59,926 nucleotides of DNA from contig CAYJIC010000001.1 in the NCBI GenBank assembly GCA_964370155.1, forward strand, positions 1 through 59,926, in the 5' to 3' direction. Positions within the stretch are counted from its first letter, which is position 1. Each line of letters opens with the position of its first letter. This document shows, in pieces, positions 4,896 to 50,780 of this stretch. This DNA is from an uncultured Oscillospiraceae bacterium. GTDB lineage: Bacteria > Bacillota > Clostridia > Oscillospirales > Ruminococcaceae. The notes under the pieces were generated by a model. It searched no databases. It was not told the origin of the DNA and saw nothing but the letters and a program-made list of their open reading frames with translations. A program made the translations under genes and the position numbers.

Positions 4896-4936
4896 TAAAA
4901 ATATAACCCTAAAACAAGATGCTTCAAGGATTATAT
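4896..4936 (-). terminator. possible intrinsic terminator after the 94-aa gene
   Basis: ATATAACCCT (4901-4910) pairs with AGGATTATAT (4927-4936) with one mismatch. On the minus strand it is followed by TTTTAT (4896-4900 region). Confidence 0.4.
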
Positions 4937-4961
4937 TGTTTTTGTAGTAATAAAAGTATAT

Positions 4962-5246: not shown

Positions 5247-5281
5247 AAAGAACTCCTTTCACTTATGGAAAATGCAGTTGA

Positions 5282-7114
5282 CTATATGTTTTCATCATGA
5301 AAATGTTGATAAACGGCTTTTGCAGCGGTGCGAGTTACACCTTTAGCAGCGGATAAATCGTCTATAGAAGCGCAGGAGATGGCACGTAAAGTTTTAAAGT
5401 GGGTCATCAAAGCTTTCGCCGTGGCGGGCCCTACACCGGAAATGGTGGTTAGCGTGCTGGCAAATGCTTTTCCTTTTGCTTTTTTGCGCTGATAGCTGAT
5501 GGCAAAACGATGTGTTTCGTCTTGGATACCTGTAATAAAGGTGAATGGGCCACGATGCATTGACAGTGTGATTTCACTACCATTTTTAGCGATTATGCCT
5601 CTGGTACGATGTTTATTGTCCTTGACCATACCAAACAAAGGAACATCAGAAAGCCCGGTGTTTTGCAAGACATGTGCTCCGGCAGATACTTGGCCGCGAC
5701 CACCATCAAGTAGAATCAAATCAGGCTTAACTCCGAACTGGCCACTTGCGCCGCTATCAAACTCGGCCGCTCTGCGAAGTAAAGCCTCGGATATACTGGC
5801 ATAATCATCTGTTCCGCTAACGGTTTTCATCTGAAAACGACGATACCCGGCTTTGTGAGGCTTGCCGTTTTGGAAAACTACCATTCCACATACACTGCTG
5901 CCATCACCCCAGTTGGAGATGTCGTAACTTTCAATAACCAGTGGAGGTCCTGAAAGACAGAGCAACCCGGCAAGCTCGTCTAAAACTTTTTCTTCTTTAC
6001 GAGTGCGACCGCCTTCTCGGGCAAGTCTTTCCACGGCGTTGATGTAAGTGGTTTCAACCAGCTTGCGAACATCGCCACGTTTGGGTGTGTATATTCGCAC
6101 AGACACGCCGCTTTTTTCGCTCAACAATTGCATAAGCAGCTCTTTGTCAGGCAGTGGAACATCTGTGGCGATAACACGTGGAATATCTGAGTCATCTTCA
6201 AGGTAATATCTTGGAATAAATTCTTCGCACAGTGCATCAATAGAGTTTGTGTCGTGAAATATAAACTCTCTTTTATCACAAAGTACTCCGCCTCGGAAGC
6301 GTAAAATTGAAGCACAAGCTGCGGCGTGGCTTTTTGCAAAAGCAATAATGTCGATGTCTTGATCGCCACTTTTGATAATAACTTGCTTTTCGCCAATTTT
6401 ACGGATAGCAGCTATTTGATCCCGTAAAACAGCGGCGCGTTCGTAGTCCATTTGTTCTGAGGCTTGTGACATTTGCTGGGTTAGCAGCTTGAGCAATTCG
6501 GTGTCATTTTGGCGAATAAGAGCCATGGAATTTTGTATGGTTTGAGAGTAAACAGACAAAGGGATTTTGCCTGTACACCATGCCTTGCATTTGCCTATAT
6601 GAGAATATAGACAAGGGCGTTGCTTGCCAAAATCACGAGGGAAATTTCGTGTGCAACGAGGAAGTAAAAATGAATCAAGGACAGACTGAACCATTTGGTT
6701 GACAGCGTATCCACTCATATAAGGGCCAATGTATGTGGCACCATCATCTGTTTTTTGCTTTTCGGCCGAAATACGCGGCCATTCGTCCTTTGTCAGCTTG
6801 ATATATCGATAGCCTTTATCGTCCTTTAAAAGAATATTATACTTTGGACGATGAGCTTTGATTTGGCTACATTCCAACACTAAAGCTTCAAACTCGCTTG
6901 AAGTGACAATGATATCGAATCCATAAGCTACACTTACCATTCGATGTGTTTTGTCATCAAGAGGTGAGCCGTCTCTGAAATATTGCGAGACACGAGTGCG
7001 AAGACGTTTGGCCTTACCTATATATATAATATTATCGTTTTTGTCACGGATAATATACACGCCAGGTAAAGCGGGTAATGATTTTGCTTTTTCATATAAT
7101 TCGGCCTTGGTCAC
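5282..7114 (-). CDS. uvrC: excinuclease ABC subunit C
   Basis: 610 aa. GIY-YIG N-terminus (GVYIIRDKNDNIIYIGKAKRLRTRVSQY), UvrBC domain, C-terminal HhH (ISGVGPATAKALMTHF). Confidence 0.96.
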   Translation of the reverse strand: MTKAELYEKAKSLPALPGVYIIRDKNDNIIYIGKAKRLRTRVSQYFRDGSPLDDKTHRMVSVAYGFDIIVTSSEFEALVLECSQIKAHRPKYNILLKDDKGYRYIKLTKDEWPRISAEKQKTDDGATYIGPYMSGYAVNQMVQSVLDSFLLPRCTRNFPRDFGKQRPCLYSHIGKCKAWCTGKIPLSVYSQTIQNSMALIRQNDTELLKLLTQQMSQASEQMDYERAAVLRDQIAAIRKIGEKQVIIKSGDQDIDIIAFAKSHAAACASILRFRGGVLCDKREFIFHDTNSIDALCEEFIPRYYLEDDSDIPRVIATDVPLPDKELLMQLLSEKSGVSVRIYTPKRGDVRKLVETTYINAVERLAREGGRTRKEEKVLDELAGLLCLSGPPLVIESYDISNWGDGSSVCGMVVFQNGKPHKAGYRRFQMKTVSGTDDYASISEALLRRAAEFDSGASGQFGVKPDLILLDGGRGQVSAGAHVLQNTGLSDVPLFGMVKDNKHRTRGIIAKNGSEITLSMHRGPFTFITGIQDETHRFAISYQRKKAKGKAFASTLTTISGVGPATAKALMTHFKTLRAISCASIDDLSAAKGVTRTAAKAVYQHFHDENI

Positions 7115-12659: not shown

Positions 12660-13166
12660 ATGGAAAAGCTAGAAAAACGTGTGGCACTGTGTCCGGGAAG
12701 TTACGACCCGGTGACATTAGGACATTTGAATATCGTTCAGCGCAGTGCGGCTTTATTCGATGAAGTAATTGTGGTGGTGCTGAAAAATTCGCAAAAAAAT
12801 TATGCATTTACAGCGGATGAACGTGTGAAAATGCTGGAAAAAGTGACAAAAAATCTACCGAACGTCAAGGTGGATCAATATGACGGCTTGGTGGCAGAAT
12901 ACGCAAAGATAAAAGGTGCGAGGTGCCTTGTGAAGGGTCTTCGTGCCGTGACGGATTTTGAGTATGAGTTTCAAATGGCGCTTATTAATAACAAGCTGAA
13001 CCCGGAAATGGAAACATTGTTTATCAACACCGACATGCAGTACATGTATCTTTCTTCCAGTGTGGTAAGAGAAGTGGCGATGTATGGACGTGAAATATCG
13101 AATTTTGTACCAAAAGAACTTGAAGAAGAAATTTGGCAACGACTGAAGCCAAGCAAGGAGACGTAA
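12660..13166 (+). CDS. coaD: pantetheine-phosphate adenylyltransferase
   Basis: CPGSYDPVTLGHLNIV (HxGH-type), ISSSVVRE. Starts immediately after the rsmD stop. Confidence 0.95.
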   Translation: MEKLEKRVALCPGSYDPVTLGHLNIVQRSAALFDEVIVVVLKNSQKNYAFTADERVKMLEKVTKNLPNVKVDQYDGLVAEYAKIKGARCLVKGLRAVTDFEYEFQMALINNKLNPEMETLFINTDMQYMYLSSSVVREVAMYGREISNFVPKELEEEIWQRLKPSKET

Positions 13167-13168
13167 TT

Positions 13169-13627
13169 ATGAATATTGATGACTTATTGGATTTGATGGA
13201 CGAAAATTTAGAAGATGCGTTTACTGTTCCGCTTACCGGAAAGCGTATGGTGGATGTGGATAAGTTGCGGGATATTATCGATGATATCCGCCTTAATTTG
13301 CCCACAGAGATACGCCAAGCAAAGGCTATTGTCAAGGATAGAGCAGATATTGTAGAGGGAGCTCGTGCTGAAGCAGATGGTATTGTGAAAAAAGCCGAAG
13401 AGCGTGCGCGTGTTATTGTCAGCGAGCAGGCTGTGGTGAAACAAAGCCAGCAACGAGCAACAGAAATCATGCAAAGTGCTCAGCAAAATGCCAAAGAAAT
13501 GCGTACCAGTGTGACGAATTATTGCGAAAATATGCTGCGTCAAACAGAAGAACAGCTGATGAAAAGTTATTCGGAAGTGAAAAATATACGCAGCACGGTG
13601 CGGCAAAAAGAAAAAGCAAACGGATAA
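13169..13627 (+). CDS. coiled-coil protein of unknown function
   Basis: 152 aa from ATG 13169, with AAGGAGA 8 nt upstream. Charged heptad-like sequence (AKAIVKDRADIVEGARAEADGIVKKAEERARVIV). Confidence 0.7.
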   Translation: MNIDDLLDLMDENLEDAFTVPLTGKRMVDVDKLRDIIDDIRLNLPTEIRQAKAIVKDRADIVEGARAEADGIVKKAEERARVIVSEQAVVKQSQQRATEIMQSAQQNAKEMRTSVTNYCENMLRQTEEQLMKSYSEVKNIRSTVRQKEKANG

Positions 13628-13704
13628 ATATTTTGACGTAGATAGCGGAACCTTTATTTGTTGCGCCTTATAGGCTTTATAGCTTTATAGTAAGATATAA
13701 AATT

Positions 13705-13757
13705 ACACCCTCTGATGATAGATATCTTGGTATCTTTCATTCAGAGGGTGTTTTATT
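13705..13757. terminator. bidirectional intrinsic terminator (convergent genes)
   Basis: ACACCCTCTGA (13705-13715) pairs with TCAGAGGGTGT (13741-13751), followed by TTTATT. An A/T tract lies upstream for the opposite strand. Confidence 0.75.
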
Positions 13758-13792
13758 GTGTGTAAACTTGCGGTTATATCATAAATTTGATA

Positions 13793-14884
13793 CTAGTTAG
13801 TGGCGCTGTCTTCCGATGTTTCATCGACTTTTTCGGATTCTTCATCGGTGCCTGGTGTGGAGTCATCGGTGGCGTCCGAGGAAAGGTTTTCGGTGTAAAC
13901 CGGTGTGGGAGCAGGATAAGAAGCGGGCGGTGACTGGTAGAATGGAGTCTGATGATTGTTTTGTTGATAGAAAGTCGGTGGTGGGGGAGTGGGTCTGTTC
14001 TTGCGCTTTTTGCGATTGATGCGCACGATGATAATCACAATAATAAGCACGACTATCAAAAGAATCCAAACAGGCATCATCCAAATAAGCATAAGGCTGA
14101 GATCTTGGAAAAACTCGACGGTGAAATAAAGGCTGTCTTGGAAGGTGGTAACTAAACGTGATAGGTAAGTGTCTTCTTCGGGCACTTCGCTAAGCTGTTT
14201 TACCTCGGTGATATCTATTGATATAGTGGAATAAGATATAAGGCCTTGTAAAGCACGTTGTTGGCCAAGATAAGACTCTATTTCGTACTGCACTTGGGCC
14301 AGTTGGTCTTGGATAAGTATTAAATCGGAAAGCTCGCCGGTCTCGTCCAGTAGCGCTAATAATCGTGCCTCTTGCCTGTTTAAACTTTCAAGCCTTGCTT
14401 CCACATCAATAACCTGCGATGTGAGGTCTTCGCTTTGCTCGCTAAGATTCAAAATTTGGCCGACATCGTTTAAATCGGCTAAAAAATCAGAATACGAGCC
14501 GGCAGGTACCTTGATGCTATAATATGCGCTTCGTGAGTCGCGTACATCGCTGTAAATGTCAGTGTAATCAATATACGCGCTGTGTTTTTGCAAAAGCTCG
14601 GTAAGAGTTTCTTGAGACTGCTCAAATTCGGAAGTTTCCATATACACGTGCGAGCTAAACGTGATTTGTCTGCCGTCGGTAGGGGTGTTTAAAGCAGAGC
14701 CTCCTGATTCGCCGGCTGAATAGTTGGAATAGTCATCTTCTTCGGTCATGACAGCGGCTTCAGGGGCCATGTCATAAGTGGCGGCTTGAGAGATGCTATC
14801 GGTAGCATCGGAGCCACACCCTGCTAAGATAACGATAAAAAGAAAAACAGCAATCACAACAGAAAATTTACGCATTATGGCCAT
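13793..14884 (-). CDS. DUF4349-like lipoprotein with C-terminal TM and Pro-rich/acidic tail
   Basis: MAIMRKFSVVIAVFLFIVILAGCGS lipobox, a coiled-coil core typical of DUF4349, a TM segment (WILLIVVLIIVIIIV), then a PPPPTFYQQ..SPPASYPAPTP tail. ATG 14884 follows GGAGG. Confidence 0.8.
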   Translation of the reverse strand: MAIMRKFSVVIAVFLFIVILAGCGSDATDSISQAATYDMAPEAAVMTEEDDYSNYSAGESGGSALNTPTDGRQITFSSHVYMETSEFEQSQETLTELLQKHSAYIDYTDIYSDVRDSRSAYYSIKVPAGSYSDFLADLNDVGQILNLSEQSEDLTSQVIDVEARLESLNRQEARLLALLDETGELSDLILIQDQLAQVQYEIESYLGQQRALQGLISYSTISIDITEVKQLSEVPEEDTYLSRLVTTFQDSLYFTVEFFQDLSLMLIWMMPVWILLIVVLIIVIIIVRINRKKRKNRPTPPPPTFYQQNNHQTPFYQSPPASYPAPTPVYTENLSSDATDDSTPGTDEESEKVDETSEDSATN

Positions 14885-15215
14885 GACGATACCTCCATGG
14901 AGATGATATATAATCAAGATATTTAAACATTGCTATGTATACATTGTATATCGTGTCAATGTAGAAAAGCAAGTTACAGAAAAGTGGCAGAAATATGAAA
15001 AAATGGTAAAAAAGCAGAAAAAAGTTAAAACTTGATATGAAAACGAAGCCAAAATGCACATTTATCTTTGTGTGTTTTGGCTTTGTTAAGTTCTCTAAAA
15101 GTGATTTTTGAGTAAAAAATACCGTATATTACCCACGAAATTGTTACAGTGATATTAAAAATACAAAAATAACGATAAAATGATAAAAAATAAAACAAAA
15201 AACTATGAAAACCAC

Positions 15216-15244
15216 TTGATTTTTATGTGTTTTGTTGTTATAAT
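15216..15244 (+). promoter_or_regulatory. dcw cluster promoter (Pmra-like)
   Basis: TTGATT (15216-15221), 17 nt, TATAAT (15239-15244). Confidence 0.65.
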
Positions 15245-15253
15245 ATACGAAAC

Positions 15254-15278
15254 GTGGGTAAAAGTGGGTAAAAGTAGG
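15254..15278 (+). promoter_or_regulatory. probable MraZ operator: three direct repeats at 10-bp phasing
   Basis: GTGGGTAAAA GTGGGTAAAA GTAGG (GTGGG at 15254 and 15264, GTAGG at 15274), just downstream of the -10 and 44 nt before mraZ. Confidence 0.6.
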
Positions 15279-15321
15279 TAATTTTAAACACAATGTAAAA
15301 AAAGGAAAGGTGGGGAGGTTA

Positions 15322-15741
15322 ATGTTCATTGGTGAGCATCGGTGTACTTTGGACGACAAAGGCCGATTAAACTTCCCTGCTAAATTTCGTGAAGAGATGA
15401 AGGGCGACTTTATCGTGACAAGATGGCTGGATGATTGCCTTGTGGCTTTTCCACAAACAGAGTGGGAGCGGATATCAGAACTACTCTCGAAAAAAAGTGT
15501 GGTAAAAAGTAGGGATATGCAAAGGCTGCTATATGCGGGGGCGTCACCGGCAAATCCGGACAAACAGGGAAGAATTTTAGTGCCGATGAATTTGCGCAAG
15601 CATGCATCGCTACAAAAAGAGGTAGTGGTCATAGGAGTTGGCAAGCATGCGGAAATATGGAACGCTGAGGCTTGGGAAGAGCGCACAGAAATGTTCTCAG
15701 ACGAGTCTTTGGTAGCGGCCATGGAGGAGCTTGATTTCTAA
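15322..15741 (+). CDS. mraZ: transcriptional regulator MraZ
   Basis: MFIGEHRCTLDDKGRLNFP and a second DKQGRILVP repeat. ATG 15322 follows GGGGAGG. Confidence 0.95.
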   Translation: MFIGEHRCTLDDKGRLNFPAKFREEMKGDFIVTRWLDDCLVAFPQTEWERISELLSKKSVVKSRDMQRLLYAGASPANPDKQGRILVPMNLRKHASLQKEVVVIGVGKHAEIWNAEAWEERTEMFSDESLVAAMEELDF

Positions 15742-16664
15742 TGGAATTTTCTCATAAGTCCGTGATGTTGAATGAGTGCTTGCAGGCACTGGACATAAAG
15801 CCAAACGGTGTTTATGTTGATGGTACAGCAGGCGGTGCAGGGCACTCGAAAGAGATTGCAAAACACTTGGGTAGTGGAATGCTATATGCTTTCGATCAAG
15901 ACCCTGATGCTGTAAAGATTGCGACTGAGCGGCTGATGGGGCTTCCTGCCGAGGTGATAAAATCAAACTTTCAATATGCAAAAGAAGAGCTTGAAAAACG
16001 CGGGATTGAAAGAATTGATGGTGTTTTGCTTGATTTAGGAGTTTCGTCTCATCAGTTGGACACAAGGCAGAGGGGATTTTCTTACCACGATGATGCACCG
16101 CTGGACATGCGCATGAGCCAAAGCGGACCAAGCGCCGCAGACATGGTGGCGGAGTTGTCAAGGGAAGAACTAGCCGATATATTACGAAAATATGGCGAAG
16201 AAAAAGATGCATGGCAAATTGCCGGAAAGATAGTGATGCAAAGGCAGGAGAGCCCTATTGTGACAACGGCTCAATTGGCAGAAGTTATTTTATCGGCATT
16301 GCCCCCCAAAAGAAGACGGAGCGCTAAAAATCCGGCAAGAAAAAGCTTCCAAGCTTTAAGAATTGCGGTAAACGAAGAACTGGATGTTTTGGAATCGGCA
16401 ATGAAAAGCTTGTTTGAAATGCTAAGTCCGAAAGGGCGTATGGTAGTGATAAGTTTTCATTCGCTGGAAGACAGAATAGTAAAACAGCAGTTTAGGCAGT
16501 GGTGCATTGCATGTACTTGTCCAAGGGATTTGCCTATATGCGTGTGTGGTGGGCAGGCGATGGGAAAACTTGTAGGGAAAAACCCGATGGTGGCCACGCA
16601 AGAAGAACTGGAAAACAACAAAAGAAGTCGCAGCGCTAAGCTGCGTGTGATTGAAAAAGTATAA
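15741..16664 (+). CDS. rsmH: 16S rRNA (cytosine1402-N4)-methyltransferase
   Basis: HKSVMLNE, DGTAGGAGHS, DLGVSSHQLD. TAATG overlap with mraZ. Confidence 0.96.
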   Translation: MEFSHKSVMLNECLQALDIKPNGVYVDGTAGGAGHSKEIAKHLGSGMLYAFDQDPDAVKIATERLMGLPAEVIKSNFQYAKEELEKRGIERIDGVLLDLGVSSHQLDTRQRGFSYHDDAPLDMRMSQSGPSAADMVAELSREELADILRKYGEEKDAWQIAGKIVMQRQESPIVTTAQLAEVILSALPPKRRRSAKNPARKSFQALRIAVNEELDVLESAMKSLFEMLSPKGRMVVISFHSLEDRIVKQQFRQWCIACTCPRDLPICVCGGQAMGKLVGKNPMVATQEELENNKRSRSAKLRVIEKV

Positions 16665-16698
16665 ACAATTGTAACGAATGAAGAGAGGGTGTGTTGGC

Positions 16699-17169
16699 AT
16701 GGCGCAAGTTGCATACGATTTAGAACATTTTGCACCCAAGGCAAAAAAAGCTAAAGTGATAAAAGTTTCGACGGTGAACCGTAAAGATGTTGAGCATAAA
16801 ATGCAATTGATGCGTATGATGAAAATGTTGTTTTGCGCTATGGTACTGGTGTGCTTGATAGGTGCGGTGTTGTATACTCAGGCCACGGTGACAGAGCTAC
16901 AGGCGCAAATAACGCAAAAAGAAAAAGAATTAGTTGAAGAAGAGGCACTGTACGCTTACTTAAGCTTTGAGATGGACAATAAAAGTAGTGTGAGAAATAT
17001 TGAAAAAAGTGCGTCGGACATGGGGCTTGTCAGGATGAACAGCGGCCAAGTGACGTATTTTAGAGTGGATGAAAACACCGGAATACAGCTAAAGAAAAAT
17101 CCGGTAGAGCAATTTTTTGATGATACAAAAGCGAATTTCTTGAGTTTTTGGGAGTATATACAGCCATAA
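16699..17169 (+). CDS. ftsL: cell division protein FtsL-like
   Basis: Short cytoplasmic tail, one TM (MLFCAMVLVCLIGAVLY), a coiled coil (ELQAQITQKEKELVEEE), and the conserved position after rsmH. Start is ATG 16699 or 16678. Confidence 0.7.
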   Translation: MAQVAYDLEHFAPKAKKAKVIKVSTVNRKDVEHKMQLMRMMKMLFCAMVLVCLIGAVLYTQATVTELQAQITQKEKELVEEEALYAYLSFEMDNKSSVRNIEKSASDMGLVRMNSGQVTYFRVDENTGIQLKKNPVEQFFDDTKANFLSFWEYIQP

Positions 17170-17229
17170 ACCGAGACACACAAATTGGGAAAACTCAGAA
17201 AAACAGCTTGTTGCAGGAGGACTATAGCT

Positions 17230-19569
17230 TTGAATAATCAGCACGATACTGAAAAAAACAATGAAGAAAAAAGAGCGAAGCGACCAATGTGGCTGCGCAG
17301 TATAGTGTTGGTGTTTGCGTTTGTAGTGGGTGCCACCATGCTTTTTTATGAGCTGTTTCAACTACAAGTAAGTGAAGCATCTGAGTGGGAGTCTCTGGCG
17401 GCAAGACAGCAACTTGCCAGTATAGAAATTCCGGCACAACGTGGAAACATATACGATGCCAATATGAAGTTGTTGGCACAAAGTGCTACAGTATGGACTG
17501 TTGAGACAAGTCCGGAAGCGTTAAATCAGAGTAATATTATGGATGAAGCAGGTGAATATACAGGTGAAGATCCGGCTATGGTAGCGGCAAGAGAGTTCGC
17601 CAGTATACTTGAGCTAGATGAAGAAGTGTTGTATGAGAGACTGTCAAACAAAGAAAGCATGTATTATAAAGTACAAGGTAAAGTGGAAAAAAACCAAGCC
17701 GATGCCATTCGTGAGGCGGTAGACGTATATAATCTCAGAGGCGTTTATTTGACCGAAGATACAAAACGTTATTACCCATATGAGCAAATGGCCTCTACCG
17801 TTTTAGGGTTTGTGGGAGATGACAACAACGGTCTTGAGGGTATTGAGAGTCAATATGAAGATGTGCTTTCGGGAATACCGGGTAGCATGACTATAGTGAG
17901 AGACAGCTGGGGTGGCGAGATTGCCACAGGAGAAGAAAGCACCGTATACCCTGCAGAAGATGGAAACAGTATTGTTTTGACGATGGATAGTGATATTCAG
18001 CAGATACTGGAAAAATATCTAAGTGATGCAGTGGAAACAAATAATGCTCAAAAGCGTGGGTTTGCCATTGCCATGGACGTGAACACAGGCGCTATTTTAG
18101 GTCTTGCTGTGTATCCAAGTTATGATCCAAACCAGCCGTATGATATACTGGACATAGACACCTTGGAAATGCTTGAGTCTATGACGGAAGGTAGCGAAGA
18201 ATATATCCAAGCCCAAGGCGAGGCGAGGACTCTACAATGGCGTAACAAAGCACTTGCCGATACGTATGAGCCCGGAAGTGTGTTTAAGGTTATCACGGCC
18301 GCTGCAGCGCTTGACTCAGGACTGTACACATTAGATAGCCCGTTTTCGTGTGGAGCGCAAACTCAGGTGGCTGACCATTGGATGAGTTGTGCGGGAGATC
18401 CGCCCACGGCGCACGGAGATATAAGTTTGAGTACAGCGCTGATAGAAAGTTGTAACGTGTCGTTTATCCAAATGGCGGCAGGAATGGGCGTTGATATATG
18501 GTACGATTATTTGACAGCCTTTGGCTTTACAGAGCCTACAGGAATAGATCTACCGGGCGAGCCCAGCTTGCAGGCTATTGAAAACTTGATTTATGAACAA
18601 GATGAAATGGGACCGGTAGAGCTTGCCAGTTGTTCTTTTGGCCAAAGTCATAAATACACAGCCGTGCAAATGATCACAGCGGTGTGTGCTGCAATAAATG
18701 GCGGAAATTTGATGCAACCTTATATTGTGGACAGAGAGCTGGACGCAGATGGTAATGTGGTAAAACAATATGAGCCCATCACAAAACGCCAGGTGATATC
18801 AGAAGAAACATCGGCATTAATAGCGCAGACATTGGAAGATTTGGTCACGGATTCTTCAAGTGGTAGCTGGGTGTATAAAGCCGGATACAGCATTGGCGGC
18901 AAAAGCGGCACATCCCAAAAACTGGACGTTATGGCAGAACTTCCCGAAGATGCACCACAAGTGTATGTTTCTTCTTTCTTAGGATTCGCGCCGGCGGATG
19001 ACCCACAAATTGCAGTGCTTATGGCGCTGGACGAGCCGGAAGACACTACAATGGGCAACTTCTTTGGTGGACGTTTGGTAGGCCCTTATGTACGTGATGT
19101 ATTGGTGGACAGCTTGCAGGTTATGGGTTACAGCGCAGTGTTTGACACCGATGCAGAACTGGCGCGCACTACTGTTCAGCTGCCGAAAGTCACAGAAAAA
19201 AGCGTGCAAGAAGCACAAAAACAACTAAACGACTTAGAACTTGACTATGAAGTAATAGGCGACGGAGACGTGGTTGTGGGCCAAAGTCCTGCAGCTTACA
19301 CAGAAATACCGTATGCCGGCAAAGTGGTGCTGTACACAGATGTGTCTATACCGCAAGAAATGGTGACAGTACCAACGTTTTCAGGCAGGACGCCGGCAGA
19401 TGCCATCGAGCTGGCCAAGAGTGTAGGTCTAAATGTGCTAACTACGGGTGCTCCGGACGATAATGAAGCTGCCAGAATCGGAACACAAAGCCTAGAGGCA
19501 GGCACGCAGGTGTTTAAAGGTAGCACAGTGACCCTGGAAGTGGAAGATAACACCCGAGTGGTAGAATAA
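17230..19569 (+). CDS. class B penicillin-binding protein (FtsI/PBP2B/SpoVD-like) with two PASTA domains
   Basis: SVFK (SxxK), SCN (SxN), KSGTS (KTG-like), plus two C-terminal PASTA-like repeats. Proposed TTG start at 17230, 8 nt after AGGAGG; the track start TTG 17185 has no SD. Confidence 0.92.
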   Translation: MNNQHDTEKNNEEKRAKRPMWLRSIVLVFAFVVGATMLFYELFQLQVSEASEWESLAARQQLASIEIPAQRGNIYDANMKLLAQSATVWTVETSPEALNQSNIMDEAGEYTGEDPAMVAAREFASILELDEEVLYERLSNKESMYYKVQGKVEKNQADAIREAVDVYNLRGVYLTEDTKRYYPYEQMASTVLGFVGDDNNGLEGIESQYEDVLSGIPGSMTIVRDSWGGEIATGEESTVYPAEDGNSIVLTMDSDIQQILEKYLSDAVETNNAQKRGFAIAMDVNTGAILGLAVYPSYDPNQPYDILDIDTLEMLESMTEGSEEYIQAQGEARTLQWRNKALADTYEPGSVFKVITAAAALDSGLYTLDSPFSCGAQTQVADHWMSCAGDPPTAHGDISLSTALIESCNVSFIQMAAGMGVDIWYDYLTAFGFTEPTGIDLPGEPSLQAIENLIYEQDEMGPVELASCSFGQSHKYTAVQMITAVCAAINGGNLMQPYIVDRELDADGNVVKQYEPITKRQVISEETSALIAQTLEDLVTDSSSGSWVYKAGYSIGGKSGTSQKLDVMAELPEDAPQVYVSSFLGFAPADDPQIAVLMALDEPEDTTMGNFFGGRLVGPYVRDVLVDSLQVMGYSAVFDTDAELARTTVQLPKVTEKSVQEAQKQLNDLELDYEVIGDGDVVVGQSPAAYTEIPYAGKVVLYTDVSIPQEMVTVPTFSGRTPADAIELAKSVGLNVLTTGAPDDNEAARIGTQSLEAGTQVFKGSTVTLEVEDNTRVVE

Positions 19570-39346: not shown

Positions 39347-41299
39347 ATGAATGAATTTTTACCCATCTGCATGGAAGATGTAAAAGCACGTGGATGGAAT
39401 GAGGTGGATTTTGTACTGGTATGTGGTGATGCTTATGTAGACCACCCATCTTTTGGTGCGGCACTTTTGGGACGTATGCTGGAAAAAGAAGGATATAAAG
39501 TGGCGATGTTGTCACAGCCGAATGTGAGCGACAGACGATCTTTTACAGTGTTCGGAAAGCCAAAACTTGCGTTTTTGATATCGGGTGGCGTGGTGGATTC
39601 TATGGTGGCACACTTCACAGTGTCGAAACGTAGGCGCACGTTTGATGAATATTCACCCGGGGGCAAAGCGGGACTTCGTCCCGATAGAGTGGTGGACACT
39701 TACTCTCGCATACTGAAACAACTATACCCAGCAGTACCGCTTGTGGTGGGAGGGGTAGAGGCGTCTTTGCGTCGTTTTGCACACTATGATTATTGGGATG
39801 ATGCAGTAAGGCCATCTTTGCTAGCTACAAGCGGCGCAGACCTTATAAGCTTTGGCATGGGCGAGCGTAGTATCAGCGAAATTGCAGCACGGCTAGCAAA
39901 AGGCGAGAGTATAGAGACCATCACCGATGTTTTTGGCACAGCGTATCTTACAGAGTTTTATGGCCTGCCACAAAGTTATGTGCAGTGTGCCGGATATGAA
40001 AAGGTTAAAACTGACAAAGTGGCCTATGCAAAAGCGTGTAAACTACAAATGGATAATCAAGACCCGTTTGCGGCAAAACCTGTGATTCAAAAGCAAAACG
40101 ATACGCAATATTTAGTGCAAAATCCTCCGGCAAAGCCCTTACAACGGGATGAGCTGGACGAGATATATACCTTGCCGTTCACACGTAGGTGGCATCCTGT
40201 TTATGATGAATTTGGCGGGATACCTGCGCTGGAGGAAGTAGAGTTTTCTATTATTCATAACCGTGGGTGTTTTGGCGGATGCAATTTTTGTGCCATCACA
40301 CTGCACCAAGGCAGGCAGGTAACAAGCCGCAGCGAGGAAAGCTTGCTTCAAGAAGCAAAAATGTTGACGCAAAACCCTAACTTCAAGGGATATATACACG
40401 ATGTAGGCGGCCCAACTGCAAACTTTAGGTCGTCTTCATGCACAGAAGGCGAGAAATGCGGAGGAAAACGCAAATGTCTTGTGCCGTCGCCTTGTCCAAA
40501 ACTGGAAATCGATCATAGTGAGTATTTGTCGATATTGCGTAAAATGCGTGCTCTGCCAAAAGTGAAAAAGGTGTTTATACGCAGTGGTATCAGGTATGAT
40601 TATTTATTGCATGACAGAGACGAAAGCTTTTTTAAAGAACTGGTGGCATATCACGTGTCGGGCCAGCTGAAAGTAGCACCCGAACATTGTGCACCGGCGG
40701 TTCTCAGCACCATGGCAAAGCCGACAGTGGAAATGTATGATAGGTTTGTAAAGCGGTTTTATGCCTTGAGCAAAAAAGCGGGCAAAGAGCAGTATCTAGT
40801 GCCGTATCTCATTTCGAGCCATCCGGGTAGCACACTGAAAGATGCGGTAATATTGGCGCAATATCTCAAAAAGAATAAGGTGCGTCCCGAGCAGGTACAG
40901 GACTTTTACCCTACACCGGGTACAGTGTCTACATGCATGTACTACACCGAGATAGACCCATATACAGAAAAAGCTGTTTTTGTGGCAAAGTCGGCAGACG
41001 ATAAAGCTATGCAAAGGGCGCTTTTACAGCCGCATCTGCCTAAAAACAAAGTGATGGCCACAAAAGCGTTACGTATGGCAAAAAGGGAAGATTTAATCCC
41101 GTTACTGGTAGGCGGCAGTGTGCCGCAAAGAAACTCTTCACAAAACCCACGCAGTGACAAGAACTCAAAAGGCAAAAACACGCAGAAAAATAGACGTAAA
41201 AACGAAAATGATAAGTATGACAACAAAGGAAAAAATAATAGCGGTAGCGGTAAAAGAAAAGACAGAAATAAACAGGGTAAAAAACCATATAAAAAATAG
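39347..41299 (+). CDS. ygiQ: YgiQ family radical SAM protein (UPF0313)
   Basis: DFVLVCGDAYVDHPSFG and CFGGCNFCAI (CxxxCxxC). Lys/Asn-rich C-terminal tail. Confidence 0.92.
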   Translation: MNEFLPICMEDVKARGWNEVDFVLVCGDAYVDHPSFGAALLGRMLEKEGYKVAMLSQPNVSDRRSFTVFGKPKLAFLISGGVVDSMVAHFTVSKRRRTFDEYSPGGKAGLRPDRVVDTYSRILKQLYPAVPLVVGGVEASLRRFAHYDYWDDAVRPSLLATSGADLISFGMGERSISEIAARLAKGESIETITDVFGTAYLTEFYGLPQSYVQCAGYEKVKTDKVAYAKACKLQMDNQDPFAAKPVIQKQNDTQYLVQNPPAKPLQRDELDEIYTLPFTRRWHPVYDEFGGIPALEEVEFSIIHNRGCFGGCNFCAITLHQGRQVTSRSEESLLQEAKMLTQNPNFKGYIHDVGGPTANFRSSSCTEGEKCGGKRKCLVPSPCPKLEIDHSEYLSILRKMRALPKVKKVFIRSGIRYDYLLHDRDESFFKELVAYHVSGQLKVAPEHCAPAVLSTMAKPTVEMYDRFVKRFYALSKKAGKEQYLVPYLISSHPGSTLKDAVILAQYLKKNKVRPEQVQDFYPTPGTVSTCMYYTEIDPYTEKAVFVAKSADDKAMQRALLQPHLPKNKVMATKALRMAKREDLIPLLVGGSVPQRNSSQNPRSDKNSKGKNTQKNRRKNENDKYDNKGKNNSGSGKRKDRNKQGKKPYKK

Positions 41300-43631: not shown

Positions 43632-44972
43632 TTACAAACGCTCACGCAAGCGGGCGGCACGCTCTTCAAAGCCGGGCTTGCCAAGCAGTGCAAACATATT
43701 TTTCTTGTAACTTTCAACACCGGGTTGATCAAAGGGATTTACCCCTAAAATATAGCCGGAAATAGCGCATGCTTTTTCAAAGAAATAAATAAGATATCCA
43801 ATATCGTGCTCAGAAAAGCTATTTGTTTCTAAAAGAGCCACGGGCACGCCACCGTCGCTATGTGCTAAAATAGTGCCCTGTAACGCCATATCATTCACAT
43901 GGGATATACTTTGGTCTGCAAGATAGTTAAGACCATCAAAGTCTATATCACTGTTTGGGACATTTACTGAATGGCGCAGATTTTTTACCCTGATAACCGT
44001 TTCGAAAAGAAAACGTCTGCCATCTTGTAAATACTGGCCCATAGAATGTAAATCGGCTGTAAAAATGCAGCTTGCCGGGAAAATACCCTTTTGATCTTTG
44101 CCCTCGCTCTCGCCAAACAATTGCTTATACCATTCATTCATCATAGTGAAGTCAGGCTCATAGCTACACATTACTTCCACTTCTTTGCCTTTGCGATACA
44201 AAATATTTCTTGCAGCAGCCCAGCGATAGCAGTGGTTGGTAGGATTAGAATTATTAAGTTCCTTCATAGCGTTTTCAGCGCCGGACATCAATGCGTCTAT
44301 GTCAAGGCCAGCCACGGCTAAAGGCAAAAGCCCCACAGCGGTAAGAACACTGTATCTGCCGCCGACATCGTCAGGCACTACAAAAGTATCATAGCCTTCT
44401 TTATCGGCCAAATCTTTTAAGGTTCCGCGTGCTTTATCAGTGGTGGCGAAAATACGTTCCTTGGCCCCGTCTTTGCCGTATTTTTCTTCTAGCAAACCTT
44501 TGAAAATGCGAAACGCAACGGCTGGTTCTGTGGTAGTGCCGCTTTTTGATATAACATTTACAGATATATCCTTGCCTTCGCACATTGCAATTACATCACC
44601 TAAAGCAGCGGGACTAACGCTGTTTCCAGTGAAAAAAACTTGCGGCGAACCTTTACAGGACAGATTGTACTGAGCGCTTTTCACCGCTTCCATCACCGCC
44701 CTAGCTCCCAGATAAGAGCCGCCAATACCGATGACTACCAGTACATCACTGTTATTCCTGATTTTGGTCGCCGCTTGCTTAATGCGTGCAAATTCTTCTT
44801 TGTCATAGTTTTCAGGTAAATCGAGCCATCCTAAAAAATCATTTCCCGGGCCACATTTTTTGTGCAAAGTTTCATGGGCCATTTGTACAGCAGGCCAAAT
44901 ATCCGCATACTCTTCTTCACGGATAAAAGGCGCCAAGTACTTACCTTCAAAGCATACGCTCAAAACTATCAT
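43632..44972 (-). CDS. pgi: glucose-6-phosphate isomerase
   Basis: 446 aa. [34 protein letters not shown]. The ATG 44972 abuts the SD, so TTG 44963 is an alternative start. Confidence 0.95.
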
Positions 44973-45013
44973 TCCCCTCGTTTATTTATCATTAAAAGTA
45001 AATTGTATACTTT

Positions 45014-45042
45014 ATTTTATCGAAATGTGACTGCATTGTCAA
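45014..45042 (-). promoter_or_regulatory. candidate promoter of pgi
   Basis: On the minus strand: TTGACA (45042-45037), 17 nt, TAAAAT (45019-45014). Confidence 0.55.
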
Positions 45043-45280
45043 CCAAAAAAATGAAATACAAAATGATATTTTTGTGAAGAATGACAGTAAAGTTTGTGAA
45101 AATATACGTACATGAAAATGCTTTGAAACGTAGGTAAGCAAAAAAACTTGGACACTGAAAATTGATTACAGGTAATATTTTTTTAAAAATCAAAATTACT
45201 TTAATTTAGAATGTGTTATAGGCTGATTTTACCACTCGCAAATATCGGCGTAGATTCGCTATAATGCAATATTTATGACA

Positions 45281-46129
45281 CTATGAATCTTCCATGTATA
45301 AGCGGATAATTTTAAGATATTCCTCAGGATAAAAACCTATCTCGCCGTCAAAACGCGTTAAAGCAATAAGACCGCCGTCGATTTCAGGGATACTTGCCAG
45401 CATTTTTGCATTATCAGCCTTAAGGCCACCGCCATATACTACATCAAGGCCATTGGTGTGTTTTTTTACAAATTTTGCTATTTTCTCAATATATGGTTTA
45501 TCGGCGGGAGTTTTGCCAGGTCCGATGCTCCACACAGGCTCGTATGCAATTATCACACGGCTTTTATCTACACCGTCAAGGCCGATGTTAAGTTGTGCGC
45601 CTAAAACGTCTTCCCAAGTGTTTAACTCTTCGCTTTTTTCACCGATGCAGTAAAGCACGGATAATCCGGCCGCATGTGCTGCCTTAATTTCTTCATTCAA
45701 TATCTTGTTTACAACAGATGAAGCTTTGTTGCCGGTTACTCCTGCCATTTCCAAAATGCTCATTTTGTCGCTTCGTTCTTCACAGTGGCCGATAATGGTG
45801 CTGCGACAGCCCATTTGTGACACGGAATTTGCAGTGCGGTGTGTGGTGAATGCACCAAAATTTCCACCAACGGCAGTATCGTGGCGAAACACACCTTGGC
45901 TGCCTATTTGCACAGGACTATCATCCCTTAGTGCTCTTGTAGCACTTAGTAAATGCGCTTCGGGCAAGTACATAACAAATTCCACAACATTCTTTGGGTA
46001 AGATATTAAAGTGTCCTGAGTGCTTTCAACAATGGTTTCGCCCCAATCGGGCATGGGTGCCAGCCTGTTGACACCACCTTTTTCAGGGGAGATGTCAAAA
46101 CGCTTCAGATTTAAAAAAATGTGCTTCAT
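45281..46129 (-). CDS. triose-phosphate isomerase family protein (atypical, 282 aa)
   Basis: LNLKRF (N/K), IGHCEER (His) and AYEPVWSIGPG (Glu) keep the TIM catalytic positions. It is longer than canonical TpiA. Confidence 0.8.
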   Translation of the reverse strand: MKHIFLNLKRFDISPEKGGVNRLAPMPDWGETIVESTQDTLISYPKNVVEFVMYLPEAHLLSATRALRDDSPVQIGSQGVFRHDTAVGGNFGAFTTHRTANSVSQMGCRSTIIGHCEERSDKMSILEMAGVTGNKASSVVNKILNEEIKAAHAAGLSVLYCIGEKSEELNTWEDVLGAQLNIGLDGVDKSRVIIAYEPVWSIGPGKTPADKPYIEKIAKFVKKHTNGLDVVYGGGLKADNAKMLASIPEIDGGLIALTRFDGEIGFYPEEYLKIIRLYMEDS

Positions 46130-46450: not shown

Positions 46451-48671
46451 ATGCATCATAAAACCACAAAAAAAAGAAAATCTTTATTTATTGGGCTGGC
46501 AGTAGCGTTTTTAATGTTGCTGGTTGCGTTATTTTTTTTCAATTTTTCAATGGAGAGCCTGCTGGAAAATGCTATAAAAGATAACCTAACAAAAAAAGTA
46601 GAGCAAGAGCGGCAAACAATCAATAAGGATTTTTCAAGTGCGACAAATAGGATTTTAGGCATTGCAAATTCAATTTCATTTTATGGATATGACGAGGAAA
46701 GCTTGCTTGAATATTTAAAGTCACAGCTGGAAATAAGCATGTTTGATGACTTGCACTTTGTTGATCTTCATGGAAATGGTATATCTGCCACAGGCGAGAG
46801 TAAAAACTTTGCGCAGTCAGAATATCTGCAAGAAGCAAAAAACAATGTATATACCACCTCCGATATGTATGTCTCGGAAAAAAACAGGCCAAGATACGAT
46901 AGATATTGCTGCTTCTGTTATTGTAGACGGTAAAGAAGTCGGGGTTTTGGTTGGCGAGTATTCGCTGAAAGGTGTTCAGGATGTTCTTGTTGACGGGATG
47001 GTAGATGAATGGTATGTGCTGATTTGCAATAACACCGGCGCGGAAGTGTTCAGCACTACAGACGATTATATACCATTTGAACAGTTAGCCGAGGCTGAAA
47101 TTTTAGATGGCGAATCAGTGGAGCAAATCACATCAGATCTTGTGAATAAAGGTTCAGGTGTTGTACACTTTATGCTGGATGGCGTCGAAGTTATAGGTGT
47201 ATACACACCTATTGACATCAATGACTGGAGTATAGTGCTGATAGCGGATAAAGATACTGTGCTGCTGGAAGCAAGAGTTATGATACACAGCATCTCGGCT
47301 ATTAGCGTTGGGGTGTTCATGATGTTGCTTATTATTTTGATGGTAACAGGACGCTCTAAAATGAAAAGCATCAAAGAAATGGAAAAGATTGCGTATTATG
47401 ACGAGTTGACGGGCGCGCCAAATATACTGAAGTTTAGAAAAGATGTAAAAGAGATACTGACAAAAAATCCGACCGGTGAATTTGCCACCATGAAGATAGA
47501 TGTGGAAAATTTTAAGGCTATAAATGAATTGTTTAGTTTTGATGTGGGCAATAAAGTTATTTGCGCATTTGAAAAAACAGCCGCGTCGGTGAATGAAGAA
47601 GATTTTGTGTATTGTCGAAGCGGAATAGATGAGTTCATGTTTTTTGGAAGGGCGGAGTTTTTAGGGCGTCTTGAAGAACTTACAGCTCACTATGAAAGTT
47701 ACTTTAAAGAAACTGTGCCGGAAATTAAAAACCACCGCATATCGTTTAGGTATGGGCGATATTTCCTAGAACCCAATGAAAATGATGTGAATGAAATAAT
47801 AAACAAGACAAACATGGCGCATAGTATTGCAAAGGTAAAACGTGCTGCTGGAATTTGGGATTATGATGAAAATTACAAAAAGCAACTGGTGAAACAAGCA
47901 GAAATAGCAGACAAGATGAATATGGCGCTTAAAAATGGAGAGTTTGTGCCATATATGCAACCAAAAATCAGCCTACAAAATAATAGTTGTGTGGTGGGCG
48001 CCGAGGCGTTAGTTCGATGGGTGCAGAGTGATGGAAGCATGGTGTATCCAAATGAGTTTATCCCATTGTTTGAGGCAAATGGATTTATTGTAGAAATTGA
48101 CCGGCATATTCTTAGGTGTGTTTGCCAGACGGCAAAAGACTGGATTGATAAAGGGTACGAGTGTCCTCCGATTTCTGTGAATTTCTCACGTAGGCATTTG
48201 GATAACCCGAATTTCGTGCAAGAAGTTGTAGATATTGTTGATAGTTACAAAATCGACCATAAGTATATTGAAATAGAGCTGACGGAAACAGTGGTTCTTG
48301 ATAAAGAAAATGTACTGGAAAAAGCGCTGAATTCATTTGGTGATGAAGGATTTTCAGTGGCTATTGATGATTTTGGCTCGGGGTATTCTTCGCTTGGCCT
48401 TTTGAAGAACTTTAAAGTGGACACGCTAAAACTAGATAGAAGTTTCCTAGTGAATAATCGTGAGGATAAGCGGGCGGAGTGTGTGATTGATGGTGTGATA
48501 AAATTAGCACACAGCCTTAGTATGAATATTGTGGCAGAAGGCGTGGAAGAGGAAGAACAGGTGAATTTCCTTCGTGAAGTCAACTGTGAATCAGCACAAG
48601 GTTATTTCTATGCAAAACCGATGACGGTAGAGGATTTTGAAACAACATATTTTTTAATTGAAAAAGGATAA
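46451..48671 (+). pseudogene. frameshifted sensor protein: TM, Cache-like, TM, degenerate GGDEF, EAL
   Basis: ORFs 46451-46933 and 46743-48671 overlap in frames +0/+1. Removing one A from the A7 run (46878-46884) gives continuous ..DMYVSEKTGQDTIDIAASVIVDGKEVGVLVG.. (739 aa). The GGDEF site reads SGIDEF. EAL motifs EALVRW, DDFGSGYSSL and EGVEEEEQ are present. Confidence 0.8.
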
Positions 48672-48680
48672 ATACAGTTG

Positions 48681-48716
48681 GCAGGCCCATACTTTGGGTC
48701 TGCTATTTTTATTTTA
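48681..48716 (+). terminator. intrinsic terminator after the GGDEF-EAL gene
   Basis: GCAGGCCC (48681-48688) pairs with GGGTCTGC (48696-48703) with one G-U pair, followed by TATTTTTATTTT. Confidence 0.7.
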
Positions 48717-48788: not shown

Positions 48789-48817
48789 TTGTCTTTTAGT
48801 TTATAATTTGATATAAT
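48789..48817 (+). promoter_or_regulatory. candidate extended -10 promoter of the hydrogenase-like GGDEF gene
   Basis: TTGTCT (48789-48794), 17 nt ending in TGA, TATAAT (48812-48817). Confidence 0.5.
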
Positions 48818-48915
48818 CTTACTAATTGCACTTATTTTATAAGTCATACTTGGGCTGTAAATGAATGATAAAGATTATTTTGTTTGGCAAATAAGCTGAA
48901 AGGAGGATGATATGC

Positions 48916-50664
48916 ATGGAAAATCAAAAGCTTAATTTTGTTTATACTGAAGAAAGTAAATGCAAAGGATGTAATAAATGTGTGTTTAAATGTCCTACAA
49001 AGGCAAATAAAGCTGTGTGGGTGGAAGAAGAGAACAAAATACTCATCCGAAACGGACGTTGCATTTCTTGTAGTGAATGCATTGCCATTTGCGATCATGA
49101 AGCAAGGGATTATATAGACGATACAGAAACATTTTTTGATGATTTGAAAAATGGCGTATCTATCTCAGTGGTGGTGGCGCCTGCTGCAGCGACAAATTTT
49201 AAAGATTATGAAAATATCATTGGTTTTTTAAAGCACATGGGTGTTAATTTGATATATGATGTATCTTATGGTGCAAATATTTGCACATGGGGATATATAA
49301 GGGCAATCACCGAAAAAAAGCTAAAAACATTGATTGCACAGCCATGTCCGGTAGTGGTAAGTCATGTGGAAAAATATCATTCTTCGTTGATAGAGTATTT
49401 GTCGCCGGTGCACAGCCCGGTAGCGTGTGCGGCTATATACCTGAAAAAATACAAAAATGTGACAGATAAAATTGCGTTTTTATCTCCATGTATTGGTAAA
49501 AAAAGAGAGTGTATAGATCCAAATACAGATGATAGCATCCATTATAATGTCACGTTTTCAAAGTTTGCAAAGTATATAAAAGAGCATAATATTGACATCG
49601 GTAGTTATCCTAAAGCAGAGTTTGACAGCGTGGATATGTTGCTTGGTTTTGCTTTTCCAAGGCCGGGTGGTCTTAGTGAAAATGTGAGATTGTATTTAGG
49701 CGATGATGTGTGGATAAAGCAAATAGAAGGTATTTTTGTAATTGAAGATTACTTCAGGCAGTATGAGGACGACTTGAAAAATGAGCGGCCTGTACCGCTT
49801 ATTGTGGATGCGCTGAATTGTGAGCATGGGTGCAATTTAGGAACAGGAACTGATAAAGATGCAAGATACAACGAAATTGACTTCAAGATAAACCAAAAGA
49901 AGCAACGGGTAAACAAAAGTGATGTAGAAAAGTATGTGAAAATATTTAACGAGACTTTGGATTTGAATGATTTCATGCGTAAATATGACGATAAGAGCGT
50001 GGAATATAAAACATTGACAGATGCAGACCTTGAAAATATTTATATAGAGCTTGGGAAGCTGACAGAAGCAGACCGAAATATCAACTGTTTTTCATGCGGC
50101 TACGGCACATGTGAACGTTTTGCAATTGCAATTGCGAATGGAAATAATCACAAGAATAATTGTAGGCAATATCTTTTAGATAAGTTTAAATCTATGGGAT
50201 TTATTGATGATCTTACCGGCCTGAAAAATAGAAACAGTTTTGAGGTTGAAATAGAGCAGTATAAAGGCTCAGAAAATGAGGCAGTAGGAATTGTATTTGT
50301 GGATATTAATGGACTGAAAATAGCTAATGACACTTATGGGCATAAACGTGGCGATGCGATGATTACAGCATGCTCGGACATAATGAAGAATGTTTTTCCG
50401 GGAAAAGTCTTTCGTGTGGGTGGAGATGAGTTTGTGGTTGTTGCTGCCGGCATTTCAAAAGAATTGTTTGAAGATAAGATGATAGCTTTACGTAAAGCGT
50501 TTGAAAACAATGATACAATTCGGGTATCTATCGGTGAAACATGGAGTGACAATGTAGATGATATCCAAGATATGATAGCTGAAGCTGACCAAAAAATGTA
50601 TGAAGATAAAAAACTATATTACGAAAATAACAAGCATTTATGCGCGAGAGAGCCGATGGTGTGA
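48916..50664 (+). CDS. 2x[4Fe-4S] ferredoxin / [FeFe]-hydrogenase H-domain-like sensor fused to a GGDEF diguanylate cyclase
   Basis: CKGCNKCVFKCP and CISCSECIAICD. H-cluster-like motifs are AQPCP (Cys codon 49345-49347), SPCIGKKRE (49489-49491) and NCEHGCNLGTG (49819-49833). CFSCGYGTC follows, then an intact GGDEF (RVGGDEFVV). ATG 48916 lies 9 nt after GGAGG. Confidence 0.85.
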   Translation: MENQKLNFVYTEESKCKGCNKCVFKCPTKANKAVWVEEENKILIRNGRCISCSECIAICDHEARDYIDDTETFFDDLKNGVSISVVVAPAAATNFKDYENIIGFLKHMGVNLIYDVSYGANICTWGYIRAITEKKLKTLIAQPCPVVVSHVEKYHSSLIEYLSPVHSPVACAAIYLKKYKNVTDKIAFLSPCIGKKRECIDPNTDDSIHYNVTFSKFAKYIKEHNIDIGSYPKAEFDSVDMLLGFAFPRPGGLSENVRLYLGDDVWIKQIEGIFVIEDYFRQYEDDLKNERPVPLIVDALNCEHGCNLGTGTDKDARYNEIDFKINQKKQRVNKSDVEKYVKIFNETLDLNDFMRKYDDKSVEYKTLTDADLENIYIELGKLTEADRNINCFSCGYGTCERFAIAIANGNNHKNNCRQYLLDKFKSMGFIDDLTGLKNRNSFEVEIEQYKGSENEAVGIVFVDINGLKIANDTYGHKRGDAMITACSDIMKNVFPGKVFRVGGDEFVVVAAGISKELFEDKMIALRKAFENNDTIRVSIGETWSDNVDDIQDMIAEADQKMYEDKKLYYENNKHLCAREPMV

Positions 50665-50724: not shown

Positions 50725-50780
50725 AATAACGGCTGGTAACACTAGCCGGTAGATATTTTGTTTTAAAAAGGATATTTATA

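Follow-up and report, generated by a model that had tools for sequence, protein, structure and literature searches.

A putative sensory [FeFe] hydrogenase module fused to a GGDEF diguanylate cyclase in an uncultured Oscillospiraceae bacterium

Two sensory [FeFe] hydrogenases (HydS) have been studied, TmHydS of Thermotoga maritima, which belongs to HydDB group C (M2f), and TamHydS of Thermoanaerobacter mathranii, which belongs to group D (M2e). The sensing role of HydS is still described as putative in reviews, resting mainly on the fused PAS domain and on slow catalysis (PMC8924675), and the latest work could not identify the signalling step in TamHydS (PMC13104023). Where signalling is discussed in HydS reviews and recent primary papers it is PAS-based only. 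HydDB names three subtypes of [FeFe] sensor, i.e., linked to histidine kinases (C1), to methyl-accepting chemotaxis proteins (MCP; C2, chemotactic) and to Ser/Thr phosphatases (C3), and uses the term 'diguanylate cyclase-linked' only for [NiFe] group 2c. Here we describe HydS-GGDEF, a protein most likely encoded at 48916..50664 on the forward strand of contig CAYJIC010000001.1 from an uncultured Oscillospiraceae bacterium; the window, i.e., the whole stretch of DNA that was analysed, is 59,926 nucleotides long. In this protein a HydS-type module runs directly into a GGDEF domain, the domain that makes cyclic diguanosine monophosphate (c-di-GMP). We read it as a one-component signalling protein, in which H2 or redox state is read at the H-cluster of the [FeFe] module and controls the fused cyclase, and we give this reading a probability of about 0.6.

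The H-domain occupies residues 86-312 (49162..49842, +; Pfam Fe_hyd_lg_C, 98 bits, E 6.5e-28), with residues numbered throughout from the ATG at 48907 as residue 1. The original prediction for this gene, made from the sequence alone, had proposed two ferredoxin motifs and an H-domain-like region ahead of a GGDEF domain, to be checked with the Fe_hyd_lg_C, Fer4 and GGDEF profiles; all three match, and every motif that it quoted is present. It had counted three of the four H-cluster cysteine contexts as kept, which was one too few: when the protein is aligned with the T. maritima HydA of known structure (7p5h), all four ligands, C147, C195, C305 and C309, are retained. In the HMMER alignment to this structure, the L1 motif AQPCP (residues 144-148; 49336..49350, +) pairs FTSCCPAWV of 7p5h with IAQPCPVVV and places C147 as the [4Fe-4S]H ligand corresponding to C300 of the hydrogenase CpI. 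The L2 motif SPCIGKKRE (residues 193-201; 49483..49509, +) pairs with MPCTAKKFE, C195 standing for CpI C355, while at the L3 motif NCEHGCNLGTG (residues 304-314; 49816..49848, +) the pairing is MACNYGCVGGGG in 7p5h with LNCEHGCNLGTG here, so that C305 corresponds to C499 and C309 to the bridging C503. As had been predicted from AQPCP, the proton-relay cysteine, which is not a ligand, is missing: Cys299 in CpI numbering is replaced by Pro146. Furthermore, Met353 is replaced by Ser193 and Met497 by Leu303. The CpI counterparts of K198 and E201 are K358 and E361, which we take to hold a cyanide ligand of the [2Fe] site, and D301 lies at the Glu position of ExMxC.

This pattern of retention and loss is that of HydS. 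Like the group C and group D proteins, HydS-GGDEF keeps the four cysteine ligands of the H-cluster, and Cys299, Met353 and Met497 are all lost, as they are in TmHydS and TamHydS; the Ser/Leu pair at the two methionine positions is that of TamHydS. Despite the same substitutions, both of these proteins bind an H-cluster and show reactivity towards H2 (PMC8163306, PMC10055695). HydS-GGDEF differs from both in having Pro instead of Ala at the Cys299 position, where sensory sequences in HydDB carry Ala in 43%, Cys in 17%, and Pro and Ser in about 10% each, and at the Met353 position sensory sequences carry Gly in 51%, Ser in 32% and Thr in 17% (PMC10055695). Group D (M2e) has an alternative proton pathway made up of E252, E289, S249 and D265 (TamHydS numbering), and D301 of HydS-GGDEF may perhaps be the counterpart of E289. 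Measured against published descriptions of motif and layout in groups C and D, the sensor half shows all the structural hallmarks by which putative sensory [FeFe] hydrogenases have been described.

Close homologues were sought among 5.8 billion proteins, and the 120 matches listed include at least 67 homologue clusters with the same four-part architecture, which are 48-59% identical to HydS-GGDEF with the exception of P0001 (88%). When the sensor module alone (residues 1-425) served as HMMER query against 1.84 billion cluster representatives, an exhaustive search found it in 669 clusters at 50% identity (E up to 1e-30). That Cys299 is replaced by proline is not exceptional in this company: it is the rule in the clade, with [STA]QPCP in 116 and SPCxxKxxE in 134 of the 150 nearest cluster representatives. 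Irrespective of their output, all 120 matches listed in the closer search keep [IV][AS]QPCP (QSCP in one), SPCxxKxxE (TPC in one) and Cx2Cx4Cx16C, and the strict form CxxGCxxGxG is found in 90 of them. In the 67 homologues of the same architecture the four H-cluster ligands are invariant together with K198, E201, P92, S170, P171, G254 and G255. As such, the segments that line the [2Fe] site of true hydrogenases (K198/E201, APA, SP, PGG and the bridging C309) do not vary family-wide, a pattern which indicates that the residues around the H-cluster site are under purifying selection. Two further cysteines are conserved in this region. C174 (nt 49426-49428) lies three residues past the conserved Ser-Pro, and the SPxxC consensus also occurs in histidine-kinase and other non-GGDEF relatives; C126 (nt 49282-49284), inside GADICTW, is nearly invariant in the GGDEF subgroup only. 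The protein is unlike the catalytic groups A and B, having no TSCCP with Cys299 and scoring far under the cut-offs that NCBIfam sets for hydrogenases of groups A and B1 (TIGR02512, 78.5 bits against a cutoff of 406; TIGR04105, 123.7 against 450).

The H-domain is flanked on both sides by cluster-binding regions of the HydS kind. N-terminal to it lies a ferredoxin-type dicluster domain (residues 12-66; 48940..49104, +), matched by Pfam Fer4 dicluster models, whose two CxxCxxCxxxC motifs are CKGCNKCVFKC at residues 19-29 (C19, C22, C25 and C29) and CISCSECIAIC at residues 52-62 (C52, C55, C58 and C62). Their cysteines are invariant or nearly so across the 67 homologues, and the domain is predicted to hold two relay [4Fe-4S] clusters. 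C-terminal to the H-domain, CFSCGYGTC proves to be the first part of CFSCGYGTC-x16-C (residues 394-419), i.e., of a Cx2Cx4Cx16C site formed by C394, C397, C402 and C419 (50086..50163, +), the accessory [4Fe-4S] motif of HydS-type sensors. Pfam FeS (PF04060) matches residues 392-420 with 24.9 bits (cutoff 23), and all four cysteines are invariant in the 67 homologues. Two N-terminal ferredoxin-type [4Fe-4S] motifs with a C-terminal Cx2Cx4Cx16C are also the layout of HydS, from which such a C-terminal [4Fe-4S] site has been described (PMC8163306; PMC13104023).

The loss of the relay cysteine had been likened in the original prediction both to sensory hydrogenases and to Nar1-like proteins. Pro is present in about 10% of HydDB sensory sequences, and CFSCGYGTC, as a part of the HydS Cx2Cx4Cx16C site, favours the HydS reading over a Nar1-like one. 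Proteins of the Nar1 type have a layout that differs from a two-cluster N-terminus combined with Cx2Cx4Cx16C. Set against the Nar1/NARF type, which belongs to eukaryotic cytosolic Fe-S assembly and has an H-domain cubane but no [2Fe] site, HydS-GGDEF is bacterial, has the HydS-specific flanking cluster domains and conserves the residues that line the [2Fe] site. An AlphaFold2 model built with the 67 homologues (mean predicted local distance difference test score 90; predicted template modelling score 0.77) supports an [FeFe]-hydrogenase fold for the sensor half, as the solved structures that it matches best are without exception [FeFe] hydrogenases, namely Desulfovibrio desulfuricans HydAB (DdH), HydABC complexes, CbA5H and CpI, with E about 1e-20 and target-normalised template modelling scores of up to 0.68.

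The passage from the sensor to the cyclase is short. A linker of 13-14 residues (50164..50202, +) connects C419 with the GGDEF domain, and in the model it forms a helix (residues 420-432) which begins directly after this last cluster ligand and runs straight into the GGDEF domain. Homology with the MCP- and PP2C-type relatives ends at this linker, a few residues from the fourth cysteine, while among the homologues the junction residues L423, L424, K426 and F427 are conserved. The GGDEF domain itself covers residues 433-569 (50203..50613, +) and is matched by Pfam GGDEF with 80 bits (E 1.5e-22) and by TIGR00254 with 76 bits against a cutoff of 37. HMMER aligns it with the T. maritima cyclase 4urs, which we take to be an enzymatically active diguanylate cyclase, over DxLTGLxNR, FVDxxGxKxxNDTYGHxxGD and RxGGDEF. 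The active-site motif RVGGDEF lies at residues 503-509 (50413-50433, +), and the domain includes FVDINGLKIANDTYGHKRGD at 50296-50355 (+). Of the residues that bind metal and GTP, D466, K471, N474, H479 and D483 show no variation among the 67 homologues, and the same is true of R503 and G505-F509. The claim that CFSCGYGTC leads into an intact GGDEF domain was thus borne out, the domain starting 14 residues from C419 with its catalytic residues in place. An inhibitory RxxD site, which is common but not obligatory and is found five residues before GGDEF, is absent: the protein reads FPGK where 4urs has RRSD, and the family consensus also lacks RxxD. The GGDEF half should therefore be an active cyclase without the canonical feedback inhibition by its product.

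At 52-59% identity, the same sensor module is found in front of quite different outputs, namely MCP, PP2C, histidine kinase, GGDEF-EAL and HD-GYP. The relatives ranked next after the GGDEF-type homologues are 50-59% identical over their first ~420 residues and end in an MCP signalling domain, a PP2C (SpoIIE) domain or GGDEF-EAL. The closest other homologues have MCP, SpoIIE or HisKA-HATPase_c as outputs, and across the MCP-, PP2C- and kinase-fused relatives the modules are 40-59% identical and share QPCP, SPCxxKxxE, LNCxxGCNxGTG and Cx2Cx4Cx16C. A census of outputs was taken from the best 150 of the 669 clusters, using local profiles and, for 52 of the 71 left over, a Pfam scan. It gave about 54 representatives with MCP, about 45 with a histidine kinase (many of them hybrids that also have receiver and Hpt domains, and some PAS), 17 with GGDEF only, eight with GGDEF-EAL, three with PP2C (SpoIIE) and one with an HD-GYP-like domain. 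In 148 of these best 150 the match begins within the first 30 residues and the lengths of the tails vary, and the junction to the output always comes right after the fourth cysteine of Cx2Cx4Cx16C; the linkers to GGDEF are between 5 and about 300 residues long. With many outputs attached to one module at a fixed junction, the module behaves as an input domain and, judged from these arrangements, it is a portable one. Output types are interleaved when the sensor modules are ordered by UPGMA (unweighted pair group method with arithmetic mean) on p-distances, an ordering which is not a robust tree, and this suggests repeated domain shuffling.

Nearly all close homologues come from uncultured genomes of gut type, i.e., metagenome-assembled genomes (MAGs), almost all of study ERP123703, with crude labels of Oscillospiraceae, Eubacteriales and Lachnospiraceae. 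Nearly all of the loci L001-L065 derive from the co-assemblies co1-co5 of this study and represent dozens of species-level genomes. GGDEF-type members are named in databases as 'diguanylate cyclase' only, and their MAGs carry the labels Schwartzia, Fibromonadaceae and Oscillospiraceae. Several genomes with a GGDEF-type homologue also have an MCP-type paralogue (e.g., L021/L059, L005/L060 and L041/L065). The MCP-type relatives P0069-P0100 are about 537 aa long and extend about 120 residues past the last cluster cysteine, which looks too little for a complete MCP signalling domain.

A mechanism can be proposed for how such a protein would work. At an H-cluster without the Cys299 relay, H2 would react slowly; the cluster would then settle in its reduced state, and its occupancy would report H2 pressure against the cell's ferredoxin pool, with which the two N-terminal clusters would connect it. 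A conformational or redox change may travel through the C-terminal cluster domain, where C419 stands at the start of the 13-residue helix that leads to the GGDEF domain, and could alter the pairing of two GGDEF domains and, with it, the rate of c-di-GMP synthesis. A more specific version of this reading, in which the protein is an H2-gated diguanylate cyclase that feeds hydrogen partial pressure directly into the c-di-GMP network and the [STA]QPCP module is a general-purpose 'H2 input domain', is put forward tentatively and at somewhat less than even odds.

Several points weigh against reading HydS-GGDEF as a cyclase controlled from its H-cluster. The PAS domain, on which many authors base the description of group C as sensory, was not found by the Pfam scan, there being no match at E up to 0.1 in the whole protein. 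In TamHydS, H2 does not reduce the C-terminal cluster (PMC13104023), and the relay step through this cluster is therefore unproven. No member of the [STA]QPCP clade is characterised, and both of the studied HydS carry Ala at the Cys299 position. The 60-kb window holds no candidates for hydE, hydF or hydG and no hydrogenase genes elsewhere, and a motif scan of related loci (1.29 Mb) found a catalytic HydA within 10 kb at one of 82 and a HydF-like motif at none of them; the surroundings thus provide no link to hydrogen metabolism. The cyclase must also dimerise, and dimerisation of HydS-GGDEF, like insertion of [2Fe] into the H-cluster, H2 as its ligand and the sign of the response, is something that we infer. 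The signal itself may be H2, redox state or O2.

Some of this evidence would suit the main rival reading, a plain Fe-S sensor of redox state, O2 or NO, similar to Nar1, whose H-domain would hold the [4Fe-4S] cubane only and in which oxidation or loss of a cluster would switch the cyclase. Fe-S clusters are established as gas and redox sensors (PMC13104023), neither the window nor the flanks of related loci yielded hydEFG, most loci stand in a context unrelated to hydrogen metabolism, and the proton relay is absent with Met353 and Met497 both replaced. We nevertheless consider such a sensor rather unlikely, given that the family shows no variation at the residues which line the [2Fe] site, that TmHydS and TamHydS do bind a working H-cluster with the same substitutions, and that an N-terminal two-cluster domain with Cx2Cx4Cx16C is the layout of HydS and not of Nar1. 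Low H2 turnover is kept by TmHydS and TamHydS (PMC8163306, PMC10055695), and this would fit a working hydrogenase carrying a cyclase that is uncoupled from it, i.e., constitutive or independently regulated. That explanation appears very improbable to us: the scores lie far under the group A and B1 cut-offs, the proton-relay cysteine is missing, and fusions of the module to signalling outputs recur, their junction being fixed right behind the last cluster ligand, which argues for signal transfer. As the window is probably metagenome-assembled and the adjacent gene has a homopolymer frameshift, an artefact of assembly or gene calling, or a decaying gene, was also considered. The reading frame is unbroken, however, and 67 homologues from different genomes have the full architecture and the conserved junction residues, which effectively refutes an artefact; with a further 25 cluster representatives (50% identity) that carry GGDEF, we give it hardly any credence.

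The gene lies within one uninterrupted open reading frame of 585 aa (48907-50664, +), in which the first in-frame ATG is at 48907. The second ATG, at 48916, is the most likely translation start and gives a protein of 582 aa (48916..50664, +). This start is preferred because the ribosome-binding site AAGGAGG (48899..48905, +) lies 10 nt upstream of it, compared with just 1 nt before the ATG at 48907, and because the 88%-identical homologue P0001 is also 582 aa long. A promoter-like TTGTCT-17-TATAAT with an extended TG is found at 48789..48817 (+), preceded by a terminator-like hairpin at the end of the upstream gene (48679-48705), and another terminator-like hairpin lies 3' of the stop codon (50732..50750, +); the promoter-like site and both hairpins are consensus matches only. 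With a promoter-like site, ribosome-binding site and terminator-like hairpin of its own, the gene looks monocistronic.

The surrounding window is a housekeeping region with the dcw (cell-division/cell-wall) cluster, ffh, uvrC and pgi, and an aromatic amino-acid operon immediately downstream. Its closest relative is L081 (contig CAYIZZ010000007.1, encoding P0001), which is syntenic at about 85% DNA identity. The two differ between pgi and a TIM-like gene, where L081 has a 496-aa Lar_N-family gene (4749-6239) and the window only ~300 bp of intergenic sequence (44972-45281), so that close relatives differ here by an insertion or a deletion. The sole sizeable radical-SAM open reading frame in the window encodes a 650-aa protein (39347-41299); it was ruled out as HydE or HydG, since its L081 counterpart carries Radical_SAM_N and DUF3362. 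At L084, a bifurcating [FeFe]-hydrogenase operon of the HydA/HydB/HydC type (12896-17913) lies about 1 kb from the HydS-GGDEF gene. This operon includes a small HATPase_c gene, and the HydS-GGDEF gene there is directly downstream of a receiver-GGDEF gene. The closeness of the operon at this one locus speaks for our reading.

Next to the HydS-GGDEF gene in the window stands a sensor gene with dCache, a degenerate GGDEF (SGIDEF) and EAL domains (46451..48671, +), which is split by a +1 frameshift. The original prediction had noticed this frameshift, and it is real in the sense that the window has one extra A, an A7 run at 46878-46884 where L081 has A6 and an intact gene (740 aa); either a mistake in sequencing or assembly or true slippage at the homopolymer could account for it. 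The two genes had also been proposed to form a local c-di-GMP module. Their pairing is present in the window, but it is lineage-specific; no more than about a quarter of the homologous loci have a further GGDEF or EAL gene within 10 kb. Such a gene accompanies about 13 of 58 loci of the GGDEF type, a share much like that of the MCP/PP2C type (about 4 of 19), so an enrichment of c-di-GMP genes beside HydS-GGDEF was rejected and the pairing of cyclase and phosphodiesterase in the window is not a conserved module. A conserved gene neighbourhood was rejected as well, as contexts differ among relatives and distant relatives stand in unrelated neighbourhoods.

The main value of HydS-GGDEF is experimental. 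When HydS is fused to an enzyme, one protein provides an in vitro readout, i.e., c-di-GMP under H2 versus N2 with and without the H-cluster, and H2 signalling by HydS therefore becomes directly testable. If our reading is true, no earlier HydS would have had an enzymatic output that can be measured directly, as the GGDEF version would, and H2 would join the short list of gases that control c-di-GMP. In anaerobic guts, hydrogen partial pressure serves as the currency of electron transfer between species, and c-di-GMP networks govern motility, adhesion and biofilm formation in many bacteria; hydrogen cross-feeding in rumen-, termite- and gut-type communities would then be linked to motility and attachment controlled by c-di-GMP. 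The [STA]QPCP HydS module, with its 669 clusters, would likewise be used as PAS and GAF domains are, before every major bacterial output type.

Among the described systems, HydS-GGDEF departs from TmHydS (M2f, group C) in having no PAS domain and only 14 residues between C419 and the GGDEF domain, and from TamHydS (M2e, group D), which ends after the cluster, in having a fused enzymatic output. Its closest non-GGDEF homologues are fused to MCP, PP2C or kinase domains and thus resemble HydDB C1, C2 and C3, whereas its own output, a diguanylate cyclase, falls outside these three named [FeFe] subtypes. As the original prediction had supposed, direct fusion to a cyclase is poorly characterised: HydDB lists [FeFe] sensors with kinase, MCP and phosphatase outputs only, and no description of an [FeFe] HydS-GGDEF fusion was found in the full-text literature, a coverage outside which most subscription journals fall. 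The [NiFe] group 2c, a putative diguanylate-cyclase-linked H2 sensor in HydDB, has the same proposed logic, from H2 sensing to c-di-GMP, but its metal centre and fold are unrelated and its cyclase is 'linked', whereas here it is fused in one polypeptide; it is an analogue and not a homologue. Sensor-coupled GGDEF cyclases, e.g., the globin-coupled DosC (PDB 4zve), likewise place a cofactor-bearing input N-terminal to a canonical GGDEF domain, and the GGDEF residues found here line up with those of solved cyclases; HydS-GGDEF differs from them in having a four-cluster hydrogenase module in place of haem, flavin or PAS/GAF, and in lacking RxxD. HydS-GGDEF is thus a fourth, unnamed output class of HydS, widespread in uncultured anaerobes of gut type and annotated just as 'diguanylate cyclase'.

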